Below, one piece after another: positions 43,229 to 62,686 of a stretch of DNA of 64,000 nucleotides. Position 1 is the stretch's first letter, and each line of letters opens with the position of its first letter. Source of the DNA: an uncultured Spirochaetota bacterium (lineage in GTDB: Bacteria > Spirochaetota > Spirochaetia > SZUA-6 > Fen-1364); contig CAWAHW010000005.1 in the NCBI GenBank assembly GCA_963781885.1, forward strand, positions 256,001-320,000, read 5' to 3'. The notes under the pieces were generated by a model. The model was given only the letters and a program-made list of their open reading frames with translations, did not search any database and had not been told where the DNA came from. Both the position numbers and the translations under genes were made by a program.

Positions 43229-43301
43229 CGCAGGGTAGAGCAGTTGGCAGCTCGTCGGGCTCATAACCCGGAGGTCGCAGGTTCAAATCCTGCCCCTGCT
43301 A
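43229..43301 (+). tRNA. Initiator tRNA-fMet (CAT)
   Basis: Cloverleaf, CAT anticodon, GGG/CCC anticodon stem, C1:T72 mismatch, GTTCAAATC T-loop; CCA not encoded. Confidence 0.95.
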
Positions 43302-51485: not shown

Positions 51486-51828
51486 TCAAGGCAGAATGGA
51501 CTTGTAGTCCTACGCCATGCAGAAGTCAATTCTTTTGGCCAGAATTGCGTCCGTAGGTTTTGCCACGAGCGGCTTTGCCACGGTCTGCGGGGATTGGGCA
51601 ATAGGTACAGGCGCAAAGCTGAGCGCGGCTCTGTTTCCCGCTGCGTCCGGACTGAACGGAAGAAAAGAAGTACTTGATCGTCCAGGCTTGGGACACCGGA
51701 AAGAAAAAATCTTTCGGACCAAGGGCCGCGATGTTTCAGAGGCCCAAATAGACCTGACCTTTTGAAGACTCTTCAACCATCCAAAGATTCTGGGAGAAGG
51801 TGAAAGTCCAGTTTCATTTGAACATAAC
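51479..51828. other. Apparently gene-less cassette, copy 1
   Basis: 350 bp between attC6 and attC7; homologous to 56559-56908. Confidence 0.7.
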
Positions 51829-53196
51829 ATATAGTTGAGCACCCGGCCCGCATCAGAGCGCGACATTGTGTACGTGGACATTGGCGTCTTAATGAAACAG
51901 ATTCTAGCCCGGAGTCGCCTATACTGAGTTTGGTGGACACGGTAGCATGAGGTAACTGAGCGAAAAGGAAAAGATGAAAGAGCAACGTAGATATAGTGCT
52001 GAGCTGAAAGCTGAAGCTGTAAAGATGGTACTCGAGCAGGGGCTGACCCAGAAAGAGACCGGGAAACGGTTGTCGATTCCCAAGGGGAATATCGGGAACT
52101 GGGTCGGAGCGGCCAGGACAGTCCTCCGCAACGGCAGCCCTGGAGAGCAATCGGTGGCAGAGCTTGCACGCGAGAATGCTCGCCTGAGGAAAGAACTGGC
52201 CGAAGCCCGCATGGAGCGGGAAATCTTAAAAAAAGCCACGGCGTACTTCGCAAAGGAGTCATTGCCCGGTACGCGTTCATGAAGGCCTACAGGCTCGTGT
52301 ATCCAACAAAGCTCATGGCGAGGGTGCTTGAGGTATCCCGTAGCGGATACTACAAGTGGCTGACCCGTGGACCGTCACGCAGAGAGATTCAGGATTCAGT
52401 GTTGAAGAGGCTGATCAGCTGCGCGCACAAACGAAGCAGGGGCACCTACGGCCCGCTCAGGCTCCAAGAGGAACTGGCGGCTGAAAACCAGCAGGTTGGG
52501 CGCGATCATATTTCCCGCCTGAGAAAGGAGATGGGACTGAAGTGCATCCAGCAGAAAAAGTTTAAAGTCACGACAGACTCCAAGCATCATTTGCCGGTGG
52601 CAGCGAACTTGCTGGCACAGGAGTTCTCCGTGTCGCTGCCCTCGACAGTGTGGGGGACGGATATCACCTATATCCCCACCGACGAAGGGTGGCTGTACCT
52701 TGCGGGGGTGAAGGATTTCGCAACTCGTGAGATCGTTGGCTACGCCATGGCCGGCAGAATGACGACGCAGCTCGTGCAGGATGCCTTGAAAAAGGCATTG
52801 CAATTTAGAAAGCCATCGCGCGGCTGCATTCACCATTCCGATCGAGGAAGCCAATACTGTGCCGCGGAGTATCGCAGGGACGTGGAGAAGGCGGGAATGA
52901 TTGCCTCCATGTCGCGAAAGGGAAATTGCTATGACAACGCCCCCACGGAGAGTTTTTGGGGTCACCTCAAGCAGGAATTGATTTACCACCGCCATTTTCA
53001 GACACGCAACGAAGCCATAGCGGTAATCAGGGAATACATCGAGATCTTCTACAACCGAATACGTCGTCATTCGGCTCTCGGCAACACGGCTCCGTCCGTT
53101 TATGCCGAAACATATTACTCACAAAGGAGAATCGCCTGAGTCCTCACTGTCCACTATTGACAGTACAGGCCAGAGTGCTCCAACGTGTTGTTAGAT
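51822..53196 (-). repeat. attC site 7 (family A) split by IS3 (51822-51914 + 53176-53196)
   Basis: Removing the IS and one GAG copy restores ...CCGGAG TGCTCCAAC..GTTAGAT, 114 bp. Confidence 0.88.
51915..53172 (+). mobile_element. IS3-family element (orfA 51974..52282, orfB 52279..53139)
   Basis: 25-bp imperfect TIRs, 3-bp TSD GAG, A7G slippery site at 52228-35, WGTDITY/HSDRGSQY/DNA..ESF DDE motifs. Confidence 0.95.
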
Positions 53197-53298
53197 TCAA
53201 GAAATCTTTGCAACGGATGCAAGGCGGCCACCGGGCATGAAAGCCAACAAATCCCGGGCGCCGGCATCCACTGTGGACACGTATTTAGGAAGACTTAG

Positions 53299-53852
53299 AA
53301 CCCCACCGCCTATGGCGGTGGTTATGTCCTGATGGCTGTGCCGTAAGACCGATTGCGAATAAGATAACGGAATGGCGAAATGGAGGAAACAGTCGCACGT
53401 GGTCTACCAGTGCAGCTACCACATAGTATGGTGCCCAAAATACCGATTTCGGATTCTAGAAGGAGCCGTAGCGAAGTATGTCGAAGAACGTATCAGGACT
53501 ATCTGCGAGTGGAAGGATAGTGAGATAGAGGAACTGAGTGTGATGAAGGATCACGTGCACCTGGTGGTGAACGTTCCTCCGAAAGTATCGCTATCAGAGT
53601 TGATGGGATTCCTGAAAGGCAAGACGGCAATTGGGTTGTTCAAAACCTACAGGAACCTCAGGAAGAAGCCATACTGGGGGAATCATTTCTGGAGCCGCGG
53701 TTATTGTGTAACGACCATAGGGCTGGACGAAGAAAAGATACGGCGCTACGTGCGATACCAGGAAGAGAAGGAGCGGCTCGAAGAAAGAGAGCGCGAAGAA
53801 CCGGGCCTCTTTTAGAGGCCGGGGTTCAAATCCACCGCCTCAGGCGGTGGAT
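53299..53852 (+). mobile_element. tnpA: IS200-type element (tnpA 53372..53815, no tnpB); ends approximate
   Basis: Y1 HUH motifs YHIVW.PKYR, DHVH, FWSRGY; subterminal hairpins CCACCGCC-n3-GGCGGTGG at 53303-21 and 53830-52. Confidence 0.92.
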
Positions 53853-54009
53853 GCTTTAAGCCGCAACCGAACTTACGGCAGCTGGTCTAATGGAAGTCAA
53901 GCACAGCTTAGCAGCAACCTTACCCCAAGAATTCCATAACCGAAAAAGACTGACGGTAGCTGGTTTGAGTTGCAGGGCATAGAAAGAAGAAAGACTACTG
54001 GGAGATTGA

Positions 54010-54124
54010 ATCTAACATAGAGTTGACCAGCGCCGCCGCATCATCCAGCCCCATCCGACGATTAGGATAAAGTTGGGTCTATCCAGACAAATTCCAAGGC
54101 GACTGGTCCAACGATTTGTTAGAT
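54010..54124 (-). repeat. attC site 8 (family B)
   Basis: ATCTAAC...GTTAGAT; near-identical to site 3. Confidence 0.88.
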
Positions 54125-54132
54125 GCTTCACG

Positions 54133-55056
54133 TCATGGGCTGCTGCCCTTTGGCGCGGCGGATTTCTTGTCGTTCGGATTTTCCCTGACACTATCCGCCC
54201 TAAGGCTCGCGATCTCGAAGTCCCTCACAGAAAGAGTTGCAGTCAATGTTGTGACTTGGTTTGCCAAGCTCTGCTTTTGGTCGCTAAGGGCTCTTATCGT
54301 TGCATCCTTCGCGAAGTTGGACACAGTCACGACGATGGCAACGACCGATACAACTAGAGCGAGAAGATTCCTCCCCATTTCAAAGAAATCTTTTCGGGTT
54401 GTTGCGATATCCGCATCAAGCGTTTTCAATCTTTCCTTAATCCGGTCCTGTTCTCGCGTAGAGATGTATTCCTTTCCAAGTCTTTTCGCTAATGTCCTTT
54501 TTTCTTGCTTGAACCCCATAAAGGCATAGAAGCTGGTGAAAGGCAGAATGAGAAGATGCCACAAGAAGTACAGTGGAACGATGAGGAGTTTTGCTATGAG
54601 AAGGGCGATCGAAACAAGGCAGAAAAGGAGGTACCTGGGAGCCATCATGCCTTTTTGGAAGAAGAGTCTTTTGTAAAGGCGGGAATTCCTCCAACTCTCG
54701 ACCGACCCATGAAATGGCTTTCTAAAGTTCCACAGCCATTCTGTGACAGAAGCTGCACGTGCGTAGCGTTCCATCCTCTCATTGAGGGCACGGATCTGTT
54801 CGTCATTCTTGTAGGGTTGAAATGAACGTACACCCGTGAATCTCATCGGTCTCTGGGACGGTTGTCTCTCCGTGAGAAGATCAGCAAGTTCTTTACCGCC
54901 CGCTATCTCCATAGTTGCGGATTCATCTGCCGCGAAATAGAATGCAGACTGCTCGTCAGAATCTCCAAGCCTGCCGCAGTAGAAGAGTCTGGTGAAACCC
55001 TTGGTTTCAAGATATCTCACGTACGAGCCGCCGATTTGTAAGTGTTGTTCTTTCAT
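54133..55056 (-). CDS. Hypothetical membrane protein with TM segments and coiled coil (cassette)
   Basis: AGAAGGAG RBS before ATG 55056; stop 8 bp from attC8. Confidence 0.75.
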   Translation of the reverse strand: MKEQHLQIGGSYVRYLETKGFTRLFYCGRLGDSDEQSAFYFAADESATMEIAGGKELADLLTERQPSQRPMRFTGVRSFQPYKNDEQIRALNERMERYARAASVTEWLWNFRKPFHGSVESWRNSRLYKRLFFQKGMMAPRYLLFCLVSIALLIAKLLIVPLYFLWHLLILPFTSFYAFMGFKQEKRTLAKRLGKEYISTREQDRIKERLKTLDADIATTRKDFFEMGRNLLALVVSVVAIVVTVSNFAKDATIRALSDQKQSLANQVTTLTATLSVRDFEIASLRADSVRENPNDKKSAAPKGSSP

Positions 55057-55125
55057 GACTCCTTCTCCCAAAAGCCAGTGAAGCATACGCCGAAAGAGAA
55101 ATGAGCCTCCACGCTGTGCGCTTTG

Positions 55126-56444
55126 TGTCCTAACTAACACATCGTTGACACTTTTCGCAGCACATCCTAACAGTTATCTCGCTGCCCTAACCAAGCGGCC
55201 GAGCTCATCCTGGATGCGCAGCTGCCGCTCGTCAAGATAGCCTAACAGGGTGTCGCGGTAATACACGCGCCACTTGCCCTTCACGATCTGCTCCAGTCCG
55301 ACGTACTTCTCGATCAGCGTTGTGCTGACGACGACCCACTTGCTGGAGCCCCAGCGGATTGCCCCGTTGCGGCAAACGTATTTCGTGCACATGCCTTCTG
55401 GATACTTCCAGGTCCTAGTTATGCGTGGAAGGCGGCGAGGGGAGTGGCGGTAGAACTCCTTGGGCCTCCTCTGTCCCAGCGTCTGATGAGGACGCTGCAC
55501 GTTGTAGAAATGACGAAAGGCGTCGAACTTGTGTTGCTGCTGGACCAGGCTGTAGGCGGCCGGCTTTGTGGCCTCAGCCTTTAGCTCTTCGTGCATCCGC
55601 TCGTGACTACCGTTCTGCTCGGGGTGAGCCGGGTCAGAATAGACCGGCTGGATCCCCAGATCCATGAGCCAGACGGCAAGCCGCGTAAGCCGCGAGAGGC
55701 TCACCCCACTGGCGAAGGGCTCTCCGTTGTCACTGTGGATCTGTTTGGGCAAACCGTACTTCTTGAAAAGGGCCTCAAATACGGCCTTTGTGCCCTCATA
55801 TGTGGGATTATGCATTCCCACCACCGCCAGCACAAAGCGGCTGTAGGCGTCCATGACGGTCAGCGGGTAGCAGTAGCGCCCGTCGCCCATGCGGAACTTC
55901 CCTTTGAAGTCCACGCTCCAGATCTCGTTGGGGGCCTTCGCCTCAAAGATCGGGTGCATCTCTCGAATGCGACGAACGCGGCGCCGCTTCTTGACTAGGC
56001 CATAGCGTTTGAGCACCAAGGCGATCGTCGCCACCGAAGGCACCTTCCGCCGACCACCATACCTCTCCGTGAGCAGCTGAAAGATCTTCAGCGGACCCAT
56101 GCGAGGCCACCTGCCTCGTATTCGTACGATTGCCCGCTCGATGCTCGGTGCAGTGCGGTTCCACACCCGCCGCGGAGCCCGCGATTGCTCCTTGAGTCCC
56201 GCTACACCCCGCAACAGATAGCGCAGTATGTAGCGGTAACCTAAAGTACGGGAGATACCATAAGATTTGCACAGAGCAGTGAACGTGTGCTGGCCTGACT
56301 CCCACTCAAGAACGAAACTAGCCTTTTCGTCCATCGCTGACCGTTCCCTCCAGGGCATCCCGCTCTCCTCTCGGAGAAAACGTCGCCCAAAAAAGTGTCA
56401 ACGATGTGCTTAGAATTCTGTCAACGATGTGCTTAGACAGGACC
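55126..56444 (-). mobile_element. IS481-like element 1 (intact transposase 55174..56358)
   Basis: MPW.E..., W.VDFKG, DNG.PF, NG.HERMH motifs; ends TGTCC.../...GGACC with internal ~19-bp repeats; 3-bp TSD TTG. Confidence 0.92.
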
Positions 56445-56451
56445 TTGAAGC

Positions 56452-56565
56452 ATCTAACATAGAGTTCAGCACCCGGCCCGCATCAGAATTGCACCACACC
56501 GATTTGCTCCGGAATTGGGTCTTTCCTACAGATTCAGCCTGGAGTGCTGCAACGACTTGTTATGT
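56452..56565 (-). repeat. attC site 9 (family A)
   Basis: ATCTAAC...GTTATGT; L boxes GTTCAGC/GCTGCAAC. Confidence 0.9.
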
Positions 56566-56908
56566 TCAAGGCAGAATGGACTTGTAGTCTACGCTATGCA
56601 GAAGTCAATTCCTTTGGCCAGAATTGCGTCCGTAGGTCTTGCCAAGAGCGGCGTTGCCACGGTCTGCGGGGATTGAACAATAGGTACGAGCGCAAAGCCG
56701 AGCGCGGCTCTGTTTCCCGCTGCATCCGGACTGAACGGAAGAGAAGAAATACTTGGTCGTCCAGGCTTGGGACACCGGAAAGAAAAAGTCTTTCGGACCA
56801 GAGGCCGCGATGTTTCAGAGGTCCAAATGACCCTAACCTCTTGAAGACTCTTCAACTATCCAAAGATTCTGGAAGAAGGTGAAAGTTTCATTTTCCTTTG
56901 AACATAAC
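56559..56908. other. Apparently gene-less cassette, copy 2
   Basis: Diverged copy of 51479-51828. Confidence 0.7.
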
Positions 56909-57017
56909 ACAGAGTTCAGTACCCGGCCCGCATCAGATCAAAACCACAAAGATTTGCCCCGGAATTGGGTCTCAGCGGGAAGATTCTCGTCCGGAGTGCT
57001 CCAACGATTTGTTAGCC
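56902..57017 (-). repeat. attC site 10 (family A)
   Basis: ACATAAC...GTTAGCC. Confidence 0.9.
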
Positions 57018-57085
57018 ACACCCGTCAGAAACCGGCAGCAACGGGATGGAGTAGGGCAGTTTTATGGCCGGTCTTGTCTTGTGAT

Positions 57086-57376
57086 CTATGCTCCCAGGGC
57101 CTGAGCTACGGCCTCCGGGTTAATTGAAGCTACTCTCAATAAGGCTTGCGCGGGCCCTTCCGGTTTGCGCCGTCCTTGTTCCCAGTTCTGAAGCGTGGCA
57201 ATACTCACCCCAATCATTAAGGCGAATTCGCTTTGGGACTTATGCAGCTTCTCACGAATCGCCCGTACATCAGCGGGATTGAATACGGCTACTCTTGAAG
57301 GCTTCACTTTGCCGCGTTTGATCCTTCCGGCCTGCTTGATGCTTTGCGTAAGCTCGTTGAAATGCTTGGTGTTCAT
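57086..57376 (-). CDS. higA: HigA/NadS-like HTH antitoxin
   Basis: SQSEFA..IGVS..TL.NWEQGRR.P.GPA. Confidence 0.88.
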   Translation of the reverse strand: MNTKHFNELTQSIKQAGRIKRGKVKPSRVAVFNPADVRAIREKLHKSQSEFALMIGVSIATLQNWEQGRRKPEGPAQALLRVASINPEAVAQALGA

Positions 57377-57690
57377 TTGAACTCTCTCTCTACCAACTGC
57401 CTCAGGATCTTGGTCTGTTGAGCAGTAAGGTCTTCCTGTTCGTTTTTCGGATACAGATACAGCATGTAAATGGTGTCCGACGGCCTTTCCCAGTAGTAGA
57501 TAACTCGGTACCCGCCGCGCTTACCGTGTCCCTTGCCGCCCCATCTCAGCTTGCGAAGGCCACCCGTTCCTGGAATAAGGGCACCTTGCTCGGGACGTAG
57601 CACAAGTGCCGTTTGGAGCAGTCGATATTCATCATCATGCAAGCTTTGATTAGCTATCTTTGTGAATGTCGGCGTTTCCAGAAACTTCAT
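57373..57690 (-). CDS. higB: HigB/RelE-family toxin
   Basis: GTGGLRKLRW..GKRGG.RVIYY, Y.KNE..DL. Confidence 0.9.
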   Translation of the reverse strand: MKFLETPTFTKIANQSLHDDEYRLLQTALVLRPEQGALIPGTGGLRKLRWGGKGHGKRGGYRVIYYWERPSDTIYMLYLYPKNEQEDLTAQQTKILRQLVEREFK

Positions 57691-57695
57691 GTCCG

Positions 57696-57724
57696 AATGT
57701 ACGCCAATGGCGGACAGTTGTCAA
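57696..57724 (-). promoter_or_regulatory. Cassette-internal higBA promoter with overlapping operator palindrome
   Basis: TTGACA, 17 bp, TACATT; imperfect palindrome TGTCCGCCA-T-TGGCGTACA in the spacer; only 5 nt between -10 and ATG. Confidence 0.75.
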
Positions 57725-57755
57725 CTACAGTTTGTGGCAAATCCGTCTTGGTTGT

Positions 57756-57870
57756 GGCTAACATAGAGTTCAGTACCCGGCCCGCATCAGAAAGAAACCA
57801 CAAAGATTTGCCCCGGAATTGGGTCTCAGCAGGAAGATTCTAGCCGGAGTACTGCAACGATTTGTTAGAA
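57756..57870 (-). repeat. attC site 11 (family A)
   Basis: GGCTAAC...GTTAGAA; L boxes GTTCAGT/ACTGCAAC. Confidence 0.9.
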
Positions 57871-57956
57871 GGTTTTCCTCTATGCGTTCAACCCTGACGC
57901 TTTTTGCAGAAGACCCTTTCGCTTTGACTATCTTCAATCTTCAAAACCATATTCCG

Positions 57957-58346
57957 CTATTTTGCATTGGGGCGGTTCTTGGCGGTTTTGGCCGGCCGCT
58001 TTGTGGCACGAGGTCGTTTATGCAGTGGTTCATAGACTTTCAATGGGCCGCCGCCTGGCAGCCTAATAGTGGTTAGCTTCCCCCAGGTAAGCGTTTGAAC
58101 TTTGTTGCATTTGACGTTGTGCTTTCTCGTTTGATTGACGAAGGTGACGATGTCGTCGCACAGCAGGTAGAACTCCTGACTCCCGTCTTTATCTGAAGGG
58201 TGAACCGCGAGTTCAGATGGTGGAAGTGCAAAGATGAGCCAGTTGTCTCCGATGTCAACGTAGGGGAACTCAAGGACGTCTCTGATGAATGCGCGATCCT
58301 TGTCAGGATTGGAACTGTAGATAATGGAATGGCTTCCAGTAATCAC
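57957..58346 (-). CDS. VOC/glyoxalase-family protein (cassette)
   Basis: G.H.IIYS...DRAF.RDVL, LAVHP, WG..T...LPGG...YEP.H. Confidence 0.85.
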   Translation of the reverse strand: MITGSHSIIYSSNPDKDRAFIRDVLEFPYVDIGDNWLIFALPPSELAVHPSDKDGSQEFYLLCDDIVTFVNQTRKHNVKCNKVQTLTWGKLTTIRLPGGGPLKVYEPLHKRPRATKRPAKTAKNRPNAK

Positions 58347-58440
58347 TGGCAGAACGCTCCTTTAACAATAGATGCTGGCCCTGCAATATGACAGTGATGG
58401 TACTGCACATGGCGTCTTTTGAAAAGAAAGAAAATCTGAA

Positions 58441-61400
58441 TGTCCTACCTAACACATCGTTGACACTATTCTAAGCACATCGTTTACACTTTTTTCTTTG
58501 CCCTCATTGTGCGCCCAAGATCATCTTGGATGCGTAGGGTACGCTCGTCAAGGTAGCCGAGCAGTTTGTCACGATAGTACACCCGCCATTTCCCCTTGGC
58601 CATCTCTTGCAGTCCGACATACTTCTCAATCAGGGTTGTGCTAACAACCACCCACTTGCTGCCTCCCCAGCGAAGGGCTCCGTTACGGCACACATACTTC
58701 ACACTCATCCCCTCAGGGTAGTTCCATTTCGGAATCTTGCGGGGAAGGCGCCGCGGGGAATTGCAGTAGAACTCTTTGGGCTTCCGTTGCCCTAGCGCCT
58801 GATGCGGACGTTCTTCGTTGTAGTCGCGGCGGAAGGCATCAAGCTTGCGCTGCTGTGGTCCCAGGCTATACCCAGGCGGTCGTGTTGCCTCCGCCTTCAG
58901 CTCCTCATGCATGCGCTCATGGCTGCCGTTGTGCTCGGGGTGCCCAGGATCGGAGTACACAGGCTCAATCCCCAAATCCATGAACCAGACAGCCAGCCGC
59001 GTTAGCCGTGAGAGACTGACAGCGCTGGCAAATGGCTCCCCGTTGTCGCTGTGGATCTGTTTGGGAAGGCCATGCTTCCTGAAAAGTGCCTGAAATACAG
59101 CCTTTGTGCCCTCAAAAGTAGGTCGGTGCATCCCCACCACCGCCAGCACATAGCGGCTGTAGGCGTCCATGACAGTCAGCGGGTAACAATAGCGCATGTT
59201 TCCCATGCGGAACTGACCCTTGAAGTCTACACTCCAGATCTCGTTAGGAGCCTTAGCCTCAAAGATTGGGTGCACCTCGCGAATCCGCCGTACCCGTCGA
59301 CGCTTCTTTACAAGACCGTAGCGCTTCAAGATCAACGCAATGGTCAACACCGCCGGCAATTTGCCCCCACGCTGCCTCTTGCGTAGTTTCTCCTGCAATG
59401 TTTTATGTCAAGCGAAATTCCCCGAATTCACCAACAAGCTTCCCGAAAAACGCCACGGGAAATTCCCTGATTTTGCCATCGGGTTGTCTCCCGTGGATCA
59501 CATGGATGGCGGCGGTGGCCTCCTTCCCAAGCGCCGCCATCGCACCACCACGCCGTGTTCTTCCGGACATGGGGGATAGAATACGTTACCAGGTAGGCGA
59601 AACTGCTCCTTTCTCCCGGTTGTTGAGCATGACAAATTTCCGAACCTGCTCCTGAAGGTCCTGCTCGGAATACACATTGGGATGGGGTTCGTTTCCGAAT
59701 TGCTGGAGCAACCGGCGCTCAAGCTCATCGTCGATCTCCATCCGTCCAGGGAAGCGGAGCCGGTCTATCATGATCCGTGTGAGTGTCATTTTGGTTCCTT
59801 TCCTACAGGCGCCTTTGGCTGGGCGCCGTCTCGCATAAGGGCGTGCGTCATGCGATAACTCTTGGCTTCGAACATAATCAAGTGCCCATGGTGGACGAGC
59901 CGGTCGATCATCGCTGCTGCCATCTGCTCGTCGGTGAATATGCCTCCCCATTTGGAGAACTCCAAGTTGGTCGTCAGGATCAGGCTCTTGCTCTCATAGC
60001 TGTCGGCGATGATCCGAAACAGCAGTTGCGATCCCTCCCGGTCCACGGGGACATACCCCCATTCATCCAGGATCAGAAGGTCAAGTTGCTTGAGATCGCG
60101 CACAAGGCGCTCAAGGGTACCATTGCGATAAGCGTCGGACAGTTTGAGCACGAGTTCGGTGACCGTGAAGAACCGGACCAAGCTGCCCATCTCGCACGCG
60201 CTGATCCCAAGGGCGATCGCCATGTGTGTCTTGCCGGTCCCCACGCCGCCGTAGAGGACAAGGTTTTTCTTCTCCCGCACGAAGAGGCAGGCCAGCATTT
60301 CCTCCCGGCTGAAGGTAGGGGGCAGACGGATGTCCGAAAAATCGTATCCCTCAAAGCTCTTGAAGACTGGGAATGCGGCCCTGTTCAGCAGTCGGCTCTT
60401 CTTGCCGCGCTCTCTTCGGGCTATCTCCTCGCCCAGCACACGATGGAGGAACTCCTCTTGCCGTGGTGTCGCCTCCGTCTCGCATAGCTCGGCGACCCTT
60501 GCGGAGAGCATCAACCTCCGACTGAAGTCCATGATGTCGCGGCGCTGCTGCTCGCGCTCCAATCCAGGTTTGCTCATGACTGGCCAAGCCTCTGGAGGAG
60601 CTCGTCATAGACGCGCAGATCCTGCCCACGCTCCGGGGCCACCTCCAGTCCATAGCCGCTGATGCGGGCCGCGAGCGCCGCCGCGTCGCAGAAGGCGGTC
60701 CGGTTGATCCGCAGGCCCTCCTCAAGGGCATGCAAGGCCGTCTCGAAGCTGTATGTAGTCGTAAGCTGGTGCATCGTGCGCAGGGTAGCCCGCAGCTGGT
60801 CCCTAGGCTGCCTGTCCATGGCGTCCTTCAATACCGTCGGGACCATTTCCCTGATCCCGCTGTTCTGCCACGCCCCTGCATTGTTCATCAGTACGGCCAG
60901 GGAGGTCCGGTAGTCGCAGGTGTCGCTTCGCTGTGGCCCATAGTTGCGGGTGTGCCCAACCAGCACCTGCTTGCTCTCCCTGTCCAGGATGTCGATGGTG
61001 TGGGCGCGGATTGCTACCAACACCTCCTGCCCTGCGTACTCCGGGCACGTGGAATAATGGTGCCGGGCGTCGATGCGCACCTTCCCGTAGCCATCGGCCT
61101 TAACATATTCGTAGCGCACGACATCGAAGGGCATCCGCGGCGGGGGCATCAGGGCCGAGCGGTCGACCTCGAACAGCTGCCCGATGGGCTGCAGCTTCTT
61201 GTAATGCGCCTCCGCCGCCTTGGCCTCGTGCAAGTCCAGCAGTTGGCGGTTGTACGCCTCGATGTCGGTGAACTCCGGCTCCGGCACGAACAGGTTCCGG
61301 CGGGTATAGCCAATCTTGCTTTCGACGTTCCCCTTCTCGTGGCCCGATTCCGGGTTGCAGAAACGCACGGAGAAGCCGTAATGCGCCCTCATCCGCTGGA

Positions 61401-62564
61401 ACAGCTTCGCCTCGTGGATGATCTCTCCCACCCTGCGCCCTACCCCCGTGGCGTTGTCGAACACGATGAGCGGGGACACCCCGCCGATGTAGCCGAAGAT
61501 GTCCTTGAGCCCTTGGCAGACGCATTCAGCGGTCTCGCCGCCGAATACCTGAGTGAGGCTGTTGTTGCTGTACGGGAAGGAGAGCGTCAGGTATTTCTTG
61601 CGCACCAACTCCCCCCGCTCGCGGAAGTCCGCTTCGCCGAAGTCGCACTGTGACTCGCCTGGGTGCCAAACCAGCTCCTGGCTCGCCCGCAGGGCCCGCT
61701 GTGCACTGAGCCTGTCCTTCACGTAGCGCTGGACCGCGTTGTACGCGCAATCGTAGCCCAGCGATTCGGTCTTGAGCCGGTCGTGGATCCGCTTCGCCGT
61801 ATGGCGCTGCTTGTACCAGCGCCCCTGGTCCTCCTCGAGCCACCTGTCGATCAGCGGCTTGTGCGGATCGAGCTTCGATGGCCGTGCGGCATCCTCCGGC
61901 GGGTGTGGCGAGAAGTCCTCCTGCTTCAGGTATTTCCGGACCGTCTTTTCATCGATGGCCAGCTCCCGCGCGATTCCCGCAACTGATTGTCCATCACGGG
62001 CCATCTCCTTTATGCTGTTAATCTGGGGCATGTTGAGCACCTCTCTTGATCCTCCTCCGTCGTGGTTGGTCCCTCGACGGGGATTCTTGATTCTTGGGAG
62101 CAGTGTTTCAACTGCCCCTGATTTTTCTCGGGAATTTCCCGTGGCGAAATCAGGGAACACCTCGTGGTGTTTTCAGGGATTTTCAGCTTACATTAAACAC
62201 TGCAACTTCAACGGCCCCAAGCGCGGCCTCTTGCGCCGCCACTCTACGATGGCCTCCTCTACTTCCTTGGAGGTACGGTTCCACACACGTCGAGGAGCTC
62301 GCGACTGCTCTTGCAGCCCGGCCATTCCCTGGAGCAAATACCGCGCTATGTATCGGTACGCAAGGGTCCGTGAAATCCCGAAGGATACGCACAGATCACT
62401 GACGCTGCTCTCACCTGACTCCCATTCCAGAATGAAGCTCGCCTTTTCGTCCATCGCTGAACTCTCCTTCCATGGCATTGAGGTCTCCTCCTGGAGAAGA
62501 CCATGCCCATAAAAGTGTCAACGATGTGCTTAGAATTCTGTACACGATGTGCTCGGACAGGACC
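58441..62564 (-). mobile_element. IS481-like element 2; transposase (62206..62478 + 58484..59398) interrupted by IS21
   Basis: Same end structure as element 1; 3-bp TSD GAA; halves rejoin in frame (..LGPLKLQ|EKLRK..). Confidence 0.92.
59399..62199 (-). mobile_element. IS21-family element (istA 60574..62040, istB 59786..60577, extra ORF 59586..59789)
   Basis: TG...CA TIRs with internal repeats, 6-bp TSD CTGCAA; IstA QCDFG/DN/EKG.VE; IstB GTGKTH, LDEWGY, AMIDRL. Confidence 0.95.
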
Positions 62565-62571
62565 GAAAACC

Positions 62572-62686
62572 TTCTAACATAGAGTTGAGCACCCGGCCCG
62601 CATCAGACAAAGACCACGAAGATTGGCACCTGAAGCGGGTCTATTCGAGCAAATTCAGCCTGGAGTGCTCCAACGACTTGTTATGC
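62572..62686 (-). repeat. attC site 12 (family A)
   Basis: TTCTAAC...GTTATGC. Confidence 0.9.

Follow-up and report, generated by a model that had tools for sequence, protein, structure and literature searches.

Two insertion sequences at the same distance from attC sites

We examined a stretch of 64,000 nucleotides from an uncultured Spirochaetota bacterium (GenBank assembly GCA_963781885.1, contig CAWAHW010000005.1, positions 256,001 to 320,000; this whole stretch is 'the window'), in which two related insertion sequences (ISs), elements 1 and 2, lie in an array of integron cassettes, each close to an attC site. The genome as a whole (4.64 Mb) is referred to as G000, with C1, C4, C5 and C6 as its contigs, and IS-A is the clade of elements 1 and 2, with members of 65–96% amino acid identity in other assemblies. 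An offset is the number of nucleotides from the GG end of the IS to the crossover G of the GTT in the R' box of attC. The features of the locus, with 'upstream' in the sense of the cassettes, are the following.

54012-54122, minus strand: attC closing the cassette of element 1; its R'' flank pairs with the cassette start over 13 bp
54133-55059, minus strand: open reading frame (ORF) of the cassette that carries element 1 in its 5' leader; no family match
55126-56444, minus strand: element 1, an intact IS481-like IS ('IS-A') of 1319 bp; the GG end (56444) faces attC, the TG end is at 55126
55174-56358, minus strand: transposase of element 1, 394 amino acids, the sole ORF; Pfam rve 70.6 bits, rve_3 55.1 bits, with HTH_32, HTH_29 and HTH_28
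56445-56447: target-site duplication of element 1, TTG on the plus strand; other copy at 55123-55125
56452-56565, minus strand: attC upstream of element 1 (nhmmer hit C5:312454-312563, E-value 3.8e-32); R' 56452-56458, R'' 56559-56565
57758-57868, minus strand: attC closing the cassette of element 2; its R'' flank pairs with the cassette start over 14 bp
57957-58346, minus strand: ORF of the cassette that carries element 2 in its 5' leader
58441-62564, minus strand: element 2, a diverged IS-A copy; transposase gene interrupted
59399-62199, minus strand: IS21-family element inside element 2; IstA 60574-62037, IstB 59786-60577
62565-62567: target-site duplication of element 2, GAA on the plus strand; other copy at 58438-58440
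62572-62686, minus strand: attC upstream of element 2 (nhmmer hit C5:318574-318684, E-value 1.7e-33); R' 62572-62578

On the plus strand, each element is followed by 14 nt (56445-56458 and 62565-62578) closing in CTAAC, whose final C pairs with the G that opens the R' GTT on the cassette (minus) strand. The coordinates therefore reproduce what an earlier note, made from the sequence alone, had reported for both elements: the same orientation, a distance of 14 nt from the attC crossover G, and 3-bp duplications (TTG and GAA). The asymmetric ends that it described (TGTCC... and ...GGACC, with tandem repeats) are also seen, the GG end having two tandem subterminal repeats. The non-coding parts of element 1 amount to 48 and 86 bp. 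A scan of this element for sigma-70 promoters and terminators gave no promoter-like site, and we therefore make no claim of an outward promoter.

Element 2 is 77.7% identical to element 1 at the nucleotide level over positions 1-882 and 76.9% identical over positions 1028-1319. The earlier note's description of it as an IS481-like element holds in that it is a relative within IS-A; it had left unmentioned that the element is also split by an IS21-family element (IstA, NF033546, 241.7 bits; IstB, PF01695, 209.8 bits), which is bounded by a 6-bp direct repeat (59393-59398 and 62200-62205) and leaves the transposase gene in two pieces (62188-62478 and 58484-59398). Element 2 is thus a dead copy, and the locus presents an IS within an IS within a cassette array.

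The repeats are attC sites of an integron

The window contains part of a large cassette array on the minus strand, with attC repeats of ~113 nt, running from ~44.5 kb to the window end; the cassette genes are on the minus strand and include a RelE-type toxin and an HTH antitoxin. When G000 was searched by nhmmer with a hidden Markov model (HMM) built from nine window copies, 103 attC hits were obtained, in arrays that total ~125 kb, or ~2.7% of the genome. They comprise 65 hits at C6:495-68237, 17 at C5:300475-332590 (the array that holds elements 1 and 2), 14 near the end of C4, six at the start of C1 and one stray. The C6 array ends beside an integron integrase gene (TIGR02249, 400.8 bits; cut-off 265).

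Each repeat is an imperfect palindrome with R'' (..AAC) and R' (GTT..) boxes and L boxes. Its arms covary between C/G variants, and on the minus strand the R''-L'' arm exceeds the L'-R' arm by 2 nt, which is the canonical arrangement of the extra-helical bases. Because there are 103 such hits in the genome, 65 of them in one array that ends beside an integrase, we take the repeats to be real attC sites. No Rfam family matched them.

Two properties of the cassettes matter for what follows. The R' boxes are GTTAG in 45 cases and GTTAT in 43 of the 91 examined, and the median cassette length is ~830 bp. In addition, the start of a cassette pairs perfectly with its own R'' flank, over 13 bp in 28/91 cassettes and 12 bp in 19/91; in these 47 cassettes pairing reaches well past the 7-bp R box.

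Nine IS-A copies in the genome and their targets

G000 carries nine IS-A copies: element 1 and four copies identical to it, one copy each at 99.9%, 99.8% and 93.6% identity, and element 2. All nine are inside arrays, and eight of them have an R' box at 12–16 nt; read in the same direction as element 1, these have offsets of 15, 16, 14, 14, 14, 12, 15 and 14 nt (seven of which were reproduced automatically). The ninth copy (C5:320044-321449, just beyond the window; 93.6% identity) abuts an attC site that is without its R'-L' arm, which looks like the result of a deletion next to the GG end. All eight R'-side insertions are at GTTAG boxes, though GTTAG and GTTAT are nearly equally frequent. As a control we inspected the TG end, where GTTA occurred at the corresponding distance in 0/8 cases. 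The earlier note's idea of a fixed distance is accurate for elements 1 and 2, both at exactly 14 nt; over all copies it becomes a range of 12–16 nt, mostly 14–15.

Half of the eight complete copies keep a target duplication, which is 3 bp in three cases and 4 bp in one. The target of the copy at C6:34262 is found intact after the attC at C6:57958, and two targets with paralogues reveal 3-bp and 4-bp duplications; for element 2, the uninterrupted paralogue after the attC at C6:58647 indicates that exactly 3 bp were duplicated. Copies without a duplication may have recombined with one another, because the three bases that open the far flank of the C6:29687 copy also close the R'-side flank of the copy lying at the start of C6.

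Could such a pattern arise if insertion were nearly random and copies survived only where they do no harm, between an attC and the gene that follows it? Neither attC nor cargo genes are disrupted by the insertions, which bears out the earlier note's statement that both are left intact. However, nine of nine copies fall within 2.7% of the genome, and a 5-nt stretch with side and orientation fixed, in cassettes of ~830 bp median length, would be hit by chance a few times in a thousand insertions, even before the array share is considered. Five copies are identical in sequence and hence recent, and the other IS end never shows the signal (0/8 here and 0/21 in the assemblies described below). We therefore regard an absence of targeting as very improbable.

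A single ancestral insertion might instead have been copied passively with its cassette, by the integrase or by duplication. Cassette duplication does occur in G000, as witnessed by a 338-bp cassette that is present in eight copies (window 56566-56903; 91–100% identity, longest ORF 88 amino acids). Against this, the spacer, the flanks, the attC and the cassette behind the IS are different for every IS-A copy, the orientation alone being constant; paralogous cassettes with and without the IS differ only by the IS and its 3–4 bp duplication. Passive spread thus seems to us hardly credible, and the same observations agree with the earlier note's view that the insertions are independent and share no local motif.

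A third possibility is that the element reads a local motif in the cassette leader, with attC merely nearby. A TTCAA-like word is present near position 10–15 in many G000 cassette starts. Nevertheless, 27 spacers between GTT and the GG tip share nothing past GTTA(G/T), and other clades keep to the rule next to attC types that are unrelated; we consider a leader motif highly unlikely.

The extended terminal stem that the earlier note described for the two cassettes (13 and 14 bp) is real, and with pairing over 12–13 bp being common in G000, insertion takes place just outside the paired region. The duplications end at positions 14, 14, 14 and 12, beside stems of 13, 14, about 14 and 13 bp. A strict rule that the IS enters at the foot of the stem was considered and rejected, since one copy is at 16 nt beside a 13-bp stem type, and a set spacing to the R box accounts for the positions no less well; the stem foot and a fixed R-box distance are inseparable in these data. 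We also ruled out that the IS is itself a cassette moved by the integrase, because 13 nt separate it from the crossover and its insertion duplicates target bases.

The IS-A clade in other assemblies

A metagenome scan that used an alignment of family members as query gave 490 relatives in 598 candidate stretches, of which the best 80 were taken. IS-A accounts for 24 of these 80 loci, and five of the 24 have no usable flank at the GG end, leaving 19. Outside G000, attC sites were recognized by an anchored alignment of the arms with its own control, scoring the R'' arm (threshold ≥7). Folding by minimum free energy was dropped as an attC test, because known sites were missed and 54/616 control GTT positions also passed.

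GTTA is found 14–16 nt outside the GG tip in 18 of the 19 usable loci (seven at 14, ten at 15 and one at 16), when ~2% would be expected by chance in a window of six positions. At the same distance outside the TG tip it is found in 0/21 loci, or 0/29 with G000 included. The G000 HMM recognized the adjacent attC with an E-value below 1e-3 in nine loci, three of which have a second attC, and the adjacent sites vary in their centre and in their L'-R' spacer. Read by eye, the boxes in other assemblies are GTTAG (13), GTTAT (5) and GTTAA (1). A scan of genome contigs added a metagenome-assembled genome (MAG) labelled uncultured Spirochaetota, whose copy (L023) has 85% amino acid identity and its GG end 15 nt from the R' G.

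In the homologue flanks, which the earlier note had suggested collecting, GG-end distances thus peak at 14–15 nt, and in G000 all copies are inside arrays. With the attC at the expected place in 8/9 G000 copies, 18/19 metagenome loci and the one MAG, and in 0/29 at the other end, IS-A behaves as a site hunter, and the note's candidate, an attC-guided IS481-like transposon, is strongly supported and extends to the related clades described below.

Peat, soil and sediment metagenomes commonly contain members of the clade. Among the matches listed, from 3018 proteins with E-values of 1e-40 or less, there are at least 120 protein clusters at ≥62% identity; the homologous proteins are named only 'transposase InsO family protein' in their source records. 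Contigs from sequencing runs place the IS in other sediment and peat data sets too, and on a contig of run X2 the GG end leads into attC via a different spacer that is 1 nt longer. Contigs from RNA libraries match relatives at 90–95%, which is no demonstration of transcription. When plasmids were searched by tblastn, only relatives below 50% identity appeared (Leptospira, Rhizobium and others), annotated as IS481 family.

Related clades use the same distance on either side of attC

Two further groups were compared with IS-A: IS-B, a second clade with ~40% amino acid identity to it, and IS-C, which collects further clades at 40–46% identity. IS-B occurs in G000 (C6:58647-60100, C4:791176-792486 and C5:332480-332610) and as a cluster of six copies in another genome of the genus (G015:C6, L028-L033). 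Its arrangement is mirrored: beyond the tip on the downstream side of the transposase gene come 15–16 nt and then the R'' box, in 12 of the 14 informative loci and likewise at a third IS-B end, at C5:332590. An uninterrupted paralogue at C4:807180 reveals a 3-bp duplication.

IS-C loci come from metagenomes in which attC is of the short classical type. In the automatic screen, GTTA is present 14–16 nt from the GG tip in 20 of the 41 loci that have such a tip upstream, and two more loci have variant boxes by eye (L068 and L070). A matching R'' arm (score ≥7) was found in 14/41 loci, including 13 of the 20 with GTTA, compared with 15/672 control pseudo-tips placed inside ORFs; the remaining locus, L105, which scores for the R'' arm and has no GTTA, is probably spurious.

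A common geometry runs outward from attC in all clades, namely GTTRRRY, 7–9 nt and a tip that starts with GG (TG in one IS-B sub-lineage). TG opens the far tip, and transposase gene and cassettes are always co-oriented.

In a quick maximum-likelihood tree of 81 transposase sequences the IS-A clade has 100% support and contains 19 rows with an R'-side site and four of unknown state. The attC label is clustered on the tree (0/500 shuffles as low), and clades without attC form their own groups. Four of the loci without attC (L100, L103, L111 and L113) have short repeats of their own type, tandem or inverted, on their flanks, the two flanks of L100 being inverted copies of each other; such sister clades may hunt other structured repeats. 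One copy in the same-genus genome, L025 (G015:C6:34833-38912), is chimeric: IS-B-like in its upstream end and most of its transposase, IS-A-like in the last ~90 residues and the downstream end. It has a TG tip at each end, and no attC adjoins it on either side.

The transposase and its closest known systems

IS481 (NCBIfam NF033577) remains the best family for the element 1 transposase, at 210 bits against a cut-off of 224, which is not reached. Like IS481 elements, IS-A has a single unframeshifted ORF with HTH and DDE (rve) domains, a length of ~1.3 kb and one TGT end. The terminal inverted repeats of the family start with TGT, and longer target duplications, of 4–15 bp, are described for it; IS-A scores below the cut-off, has one GG tip (TGTCC / GGTCC) and shows duplications of 3–4 bp in G000. 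The IS3 model (NF033516) gives 119.8 bits against a cut-off of 160, and there is a single ORF, not the two frameshift-joined ORFs of IS3. An AlphaFold (AF2) model of the transposase from a 55-row alignment (mean predicted local distance difference test score, pLDDT, 87.6) has the order HTH-HTH-RNase H fold-C-terminal beta barrel, and its top Foldseek matches are IstA of IS21, followed by TnsB and retroviral integrases.

The ISs that the searched texts name as attC-targeting are those of the IS1111-attC group, such as ISPa21, ISKpn4 and ISPst6 (PMC11187229, PMC11089894, PMC12444791). This group is described as having a DEDD transposase with a seeker RNA as guide, which targets one end of attC itself (PMC11187229). 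IS-A resembles it in occupying a set place in one orientation at a cassette attC. It is not a member: IS-A encodes an rve-type DDE transposase, has no long non-coding region, inserts 12–16 nt outside the R box and duplicates 3–4 bp. Homing to attC in a single orientation is also reported for group IIC-attC and group IIB introns (PMC3001079, PMC7923331). Unlike IS-A, these are retroelements that insert into an attC strand, with an unrelated mechanism and product.

Closer in manner is the ISAjo2 group of the IS1202 family, the 'dif site hunters', whose transposases of 441–457 amino acids are TnsB-like and which insert 5 bp from the XerC site (PMC10132070). Like IS-A, these are single-gene DDE elements that lie in one orientation, a few bp away from the sequence bound by a tyrosine recombinase. 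Further likenesses are that the duplication is short, that the transposase has an additional binding repeat close to either end and that there is no accessory targeting protein. They differ from IS-A in their target (dif/pdif). The 394-residue IS-A protein scores 23.7 bits against the ISNCY_2 model (NF033594; cut-off 250), which places it outside that group, and TnsB is among its fold matches, behind IstA.

Integration at a defined spacing from a site that is conserved or bound by protein is also a trait of the DDE transposons Tn7 (TnsD/attTn7) and the 'res hunters' Tn5053/Tn402, which rely on several accessory proteins. IS-A, in contrast, has one gene. Tn7 is also discussed in the IS1202 paper (PMC10132070).

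In the literature searched, as far as its text was accessible, the only attC targeters named are the IS1111-attC group and group II introns (PMC11089894, PMC12444791, PMC11187229, PMC3971601, PMC13323075); an earlier mention is possible in the founding IS1111-attC papers, ISfinder, TnCentral or supplements, which were outside the search. Nor did these texts, including passages from papers that mention both attC and IS481, contain attC targeting by IS481-type elements. The methods and IS passage of one survey give frequencies of ISs in integrons without naming families (PMC4889954). The target specificity of this abundant environmental lineage thus appears to be undescribed.

How the site may be chosen

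We hold with high confidence that the attC targeting is real, and think it very probable that a widespread lineage of single-ORF DDE ISs, with IS481 as its nearest family, picks its target by the attC of integron cassettes. Judged from the sequences, the process is targeted DDE transposition beside attC that leaves attC and cargo gene whole. The insertion point lies 12–16 nt (mostly 14–15) outside the crossover G, which is 7–9 bp past the 7-bp R box. IS-A and IS-C enter on the R' side, so that the following cassette begins with the IS, and IS-B on the R'' side, where the IS forms the last part of the cassette. Our confidence in any account of the way in which the site is read is only low to moderate.

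Several points weigh against this account. No transposition has been observed, and the attC sites outside G000 were identified by our own arm-alignment heuristic and by eye, not by IntegronFinder. Not every member of the wider family shares the habit, since about half of the relatives at 40–46% identity are without attC, and one IS-A relative (L050) has inserted into another IS copy of the family and lacks an attC at the expected spacing. The offset spans a range of values. Finally, a 3-bp duplication is present in only 3 of 17 loci (16 from metagenomes, and L023); this scarcity may come from contigs joined across identical IS copies or from recombination between copies.

Because the element has no second gene, we infer that the choice of site would be made by the transposase alone. 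It might dock on the R-box end of the attC duplex or stem as it would on its own IS end, and integrate where the tip of this attC pseudo-end would lie. Three observations speak for direct recognition of the R-box end in this manner. Apart from one mismatch, a 13-mer is common to the subterminal repeat of the IS-A TG end and the R''-L'' arm of attC, a likeness that 6/1000 shuffles equal; the attC-like motif starts 8 nt from the IS tip, compared with ~9 nt between R box and insertion point; and GTTAG boxes are preferred. We lean tentatively towards docking on a pseudo-end, while giving it somewhat less than an even chance. The subterminal repeats of IS-B and IS-C are unlike attC at the matching distance, with TAAC 22–25 nt from the tip, so the pseudo-end idea leaves the offset that the clades share unexplained. 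Moreover, the core of the R box cannot explain the strict choice of R' or R'' by clade.

The shared offset and this strict choice keep a model alive in which the site is recognized through the integrase or through structure. The transposase might dock on the integrase, or on the folded attC-integrase complex, and integrate just outside its footprint. A template exists in the ISAjo2-type ISs, for which contact with XerC at dif is proposed (PMC10132070).

In favour of this, clades with differing end repeats keep the same 14–16 nt offset, also beside attC sites that vary widely in sequence and in length (~60 to 120 nt). The strict use of R' (IS-A and IS-C) or R'' (IS-B) needs an asymmetry that is present in the integrase-attC complex and absent from the R-box core. 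The substrates, however, do not agree: the integrase binds a folded single-strand attC, whereas DDE transposases of this fold integrate into duplex DNA. The likeness of the IS-A repeat to an attC arm and the GTTAG preference also point to reading of DNA. A predicted complex of the integrase core with the transposase scored 0.00, which is evidence neither for nor against binding. On balance, we find integrase-guided capture possible and rather doubtful.

A broader version would make the lineage an IS481-like radiation specialized on folded or recombinase-bound repeats. Its GG end would dock on the integrase-attC complex and the IS would travel between genomes as a cassette passenger; its clades would each seek out one side of attC, R' or R'', or perhaps another structured repeat, and the site of a tyrosine recombinase would serve as the ruler for an enzyme of the cut-and-paste type. 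This, too, we consider on the unlikely side. Whether the transposase reads the R-box end directly, as we tentatively prefer, or is guided in one of these ways, an IS that lies inside a cassette with working sites may travel when the integrase moves that cassette, though no unit of cassette plus IS that had moved as a whole was found.

Other features of the arrays

The integrase ORF (L015 1081-2460; G000:C6:69065-70441) encodes 459 amino acids, with an N-terminal extension of ~130 residues before the TIGR02249 match. Relatives with E-values of 1e-40 or less are present in 35 of 61 related genomes, and several of them match across the extension too. The sole hit of the Rfam scan is a tRNA gene (43229-43301; 63.3 bits), ~1.2 kb before the first attC of the array segment.

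Within the array in the window (51824-53900) there are also genes for an IS3-type OrfB (52279-53139, plus strand) and an IS200/IS605-type TnpA (53372-53815, plus strand), adjoined by an attC (51824-51915) that is truncated at its R'' side. Other IS families have thus invaded the array as well, apparently without a fixed offset. The G000 arrays occupy parts of four contigs that end within or close to IS copies.

Significance for integrons and for target choice

Integron arrays are the main gene-capture devices of many bacteria, and their known specific invaders are the IS1111-attC elements and group II introns. A third invader with a different mechanism would change how arrays are annotated. 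IS-A elements break assemblies at cassette borders, and they probably create clusters of attC without an integrase. For transposition itself, a single protein of 394 residues that sets DNA at a set distance from a short structured site would be a compact model of target choice by a DDE transposase without helpers, and would stand beside the dif-hunting IS1202 family. For the bacteria that carry it, an IS lodged in a still-functional cassette and co-oriented with its transcription could spread with cassettes and alter the expression of the gene behind it.

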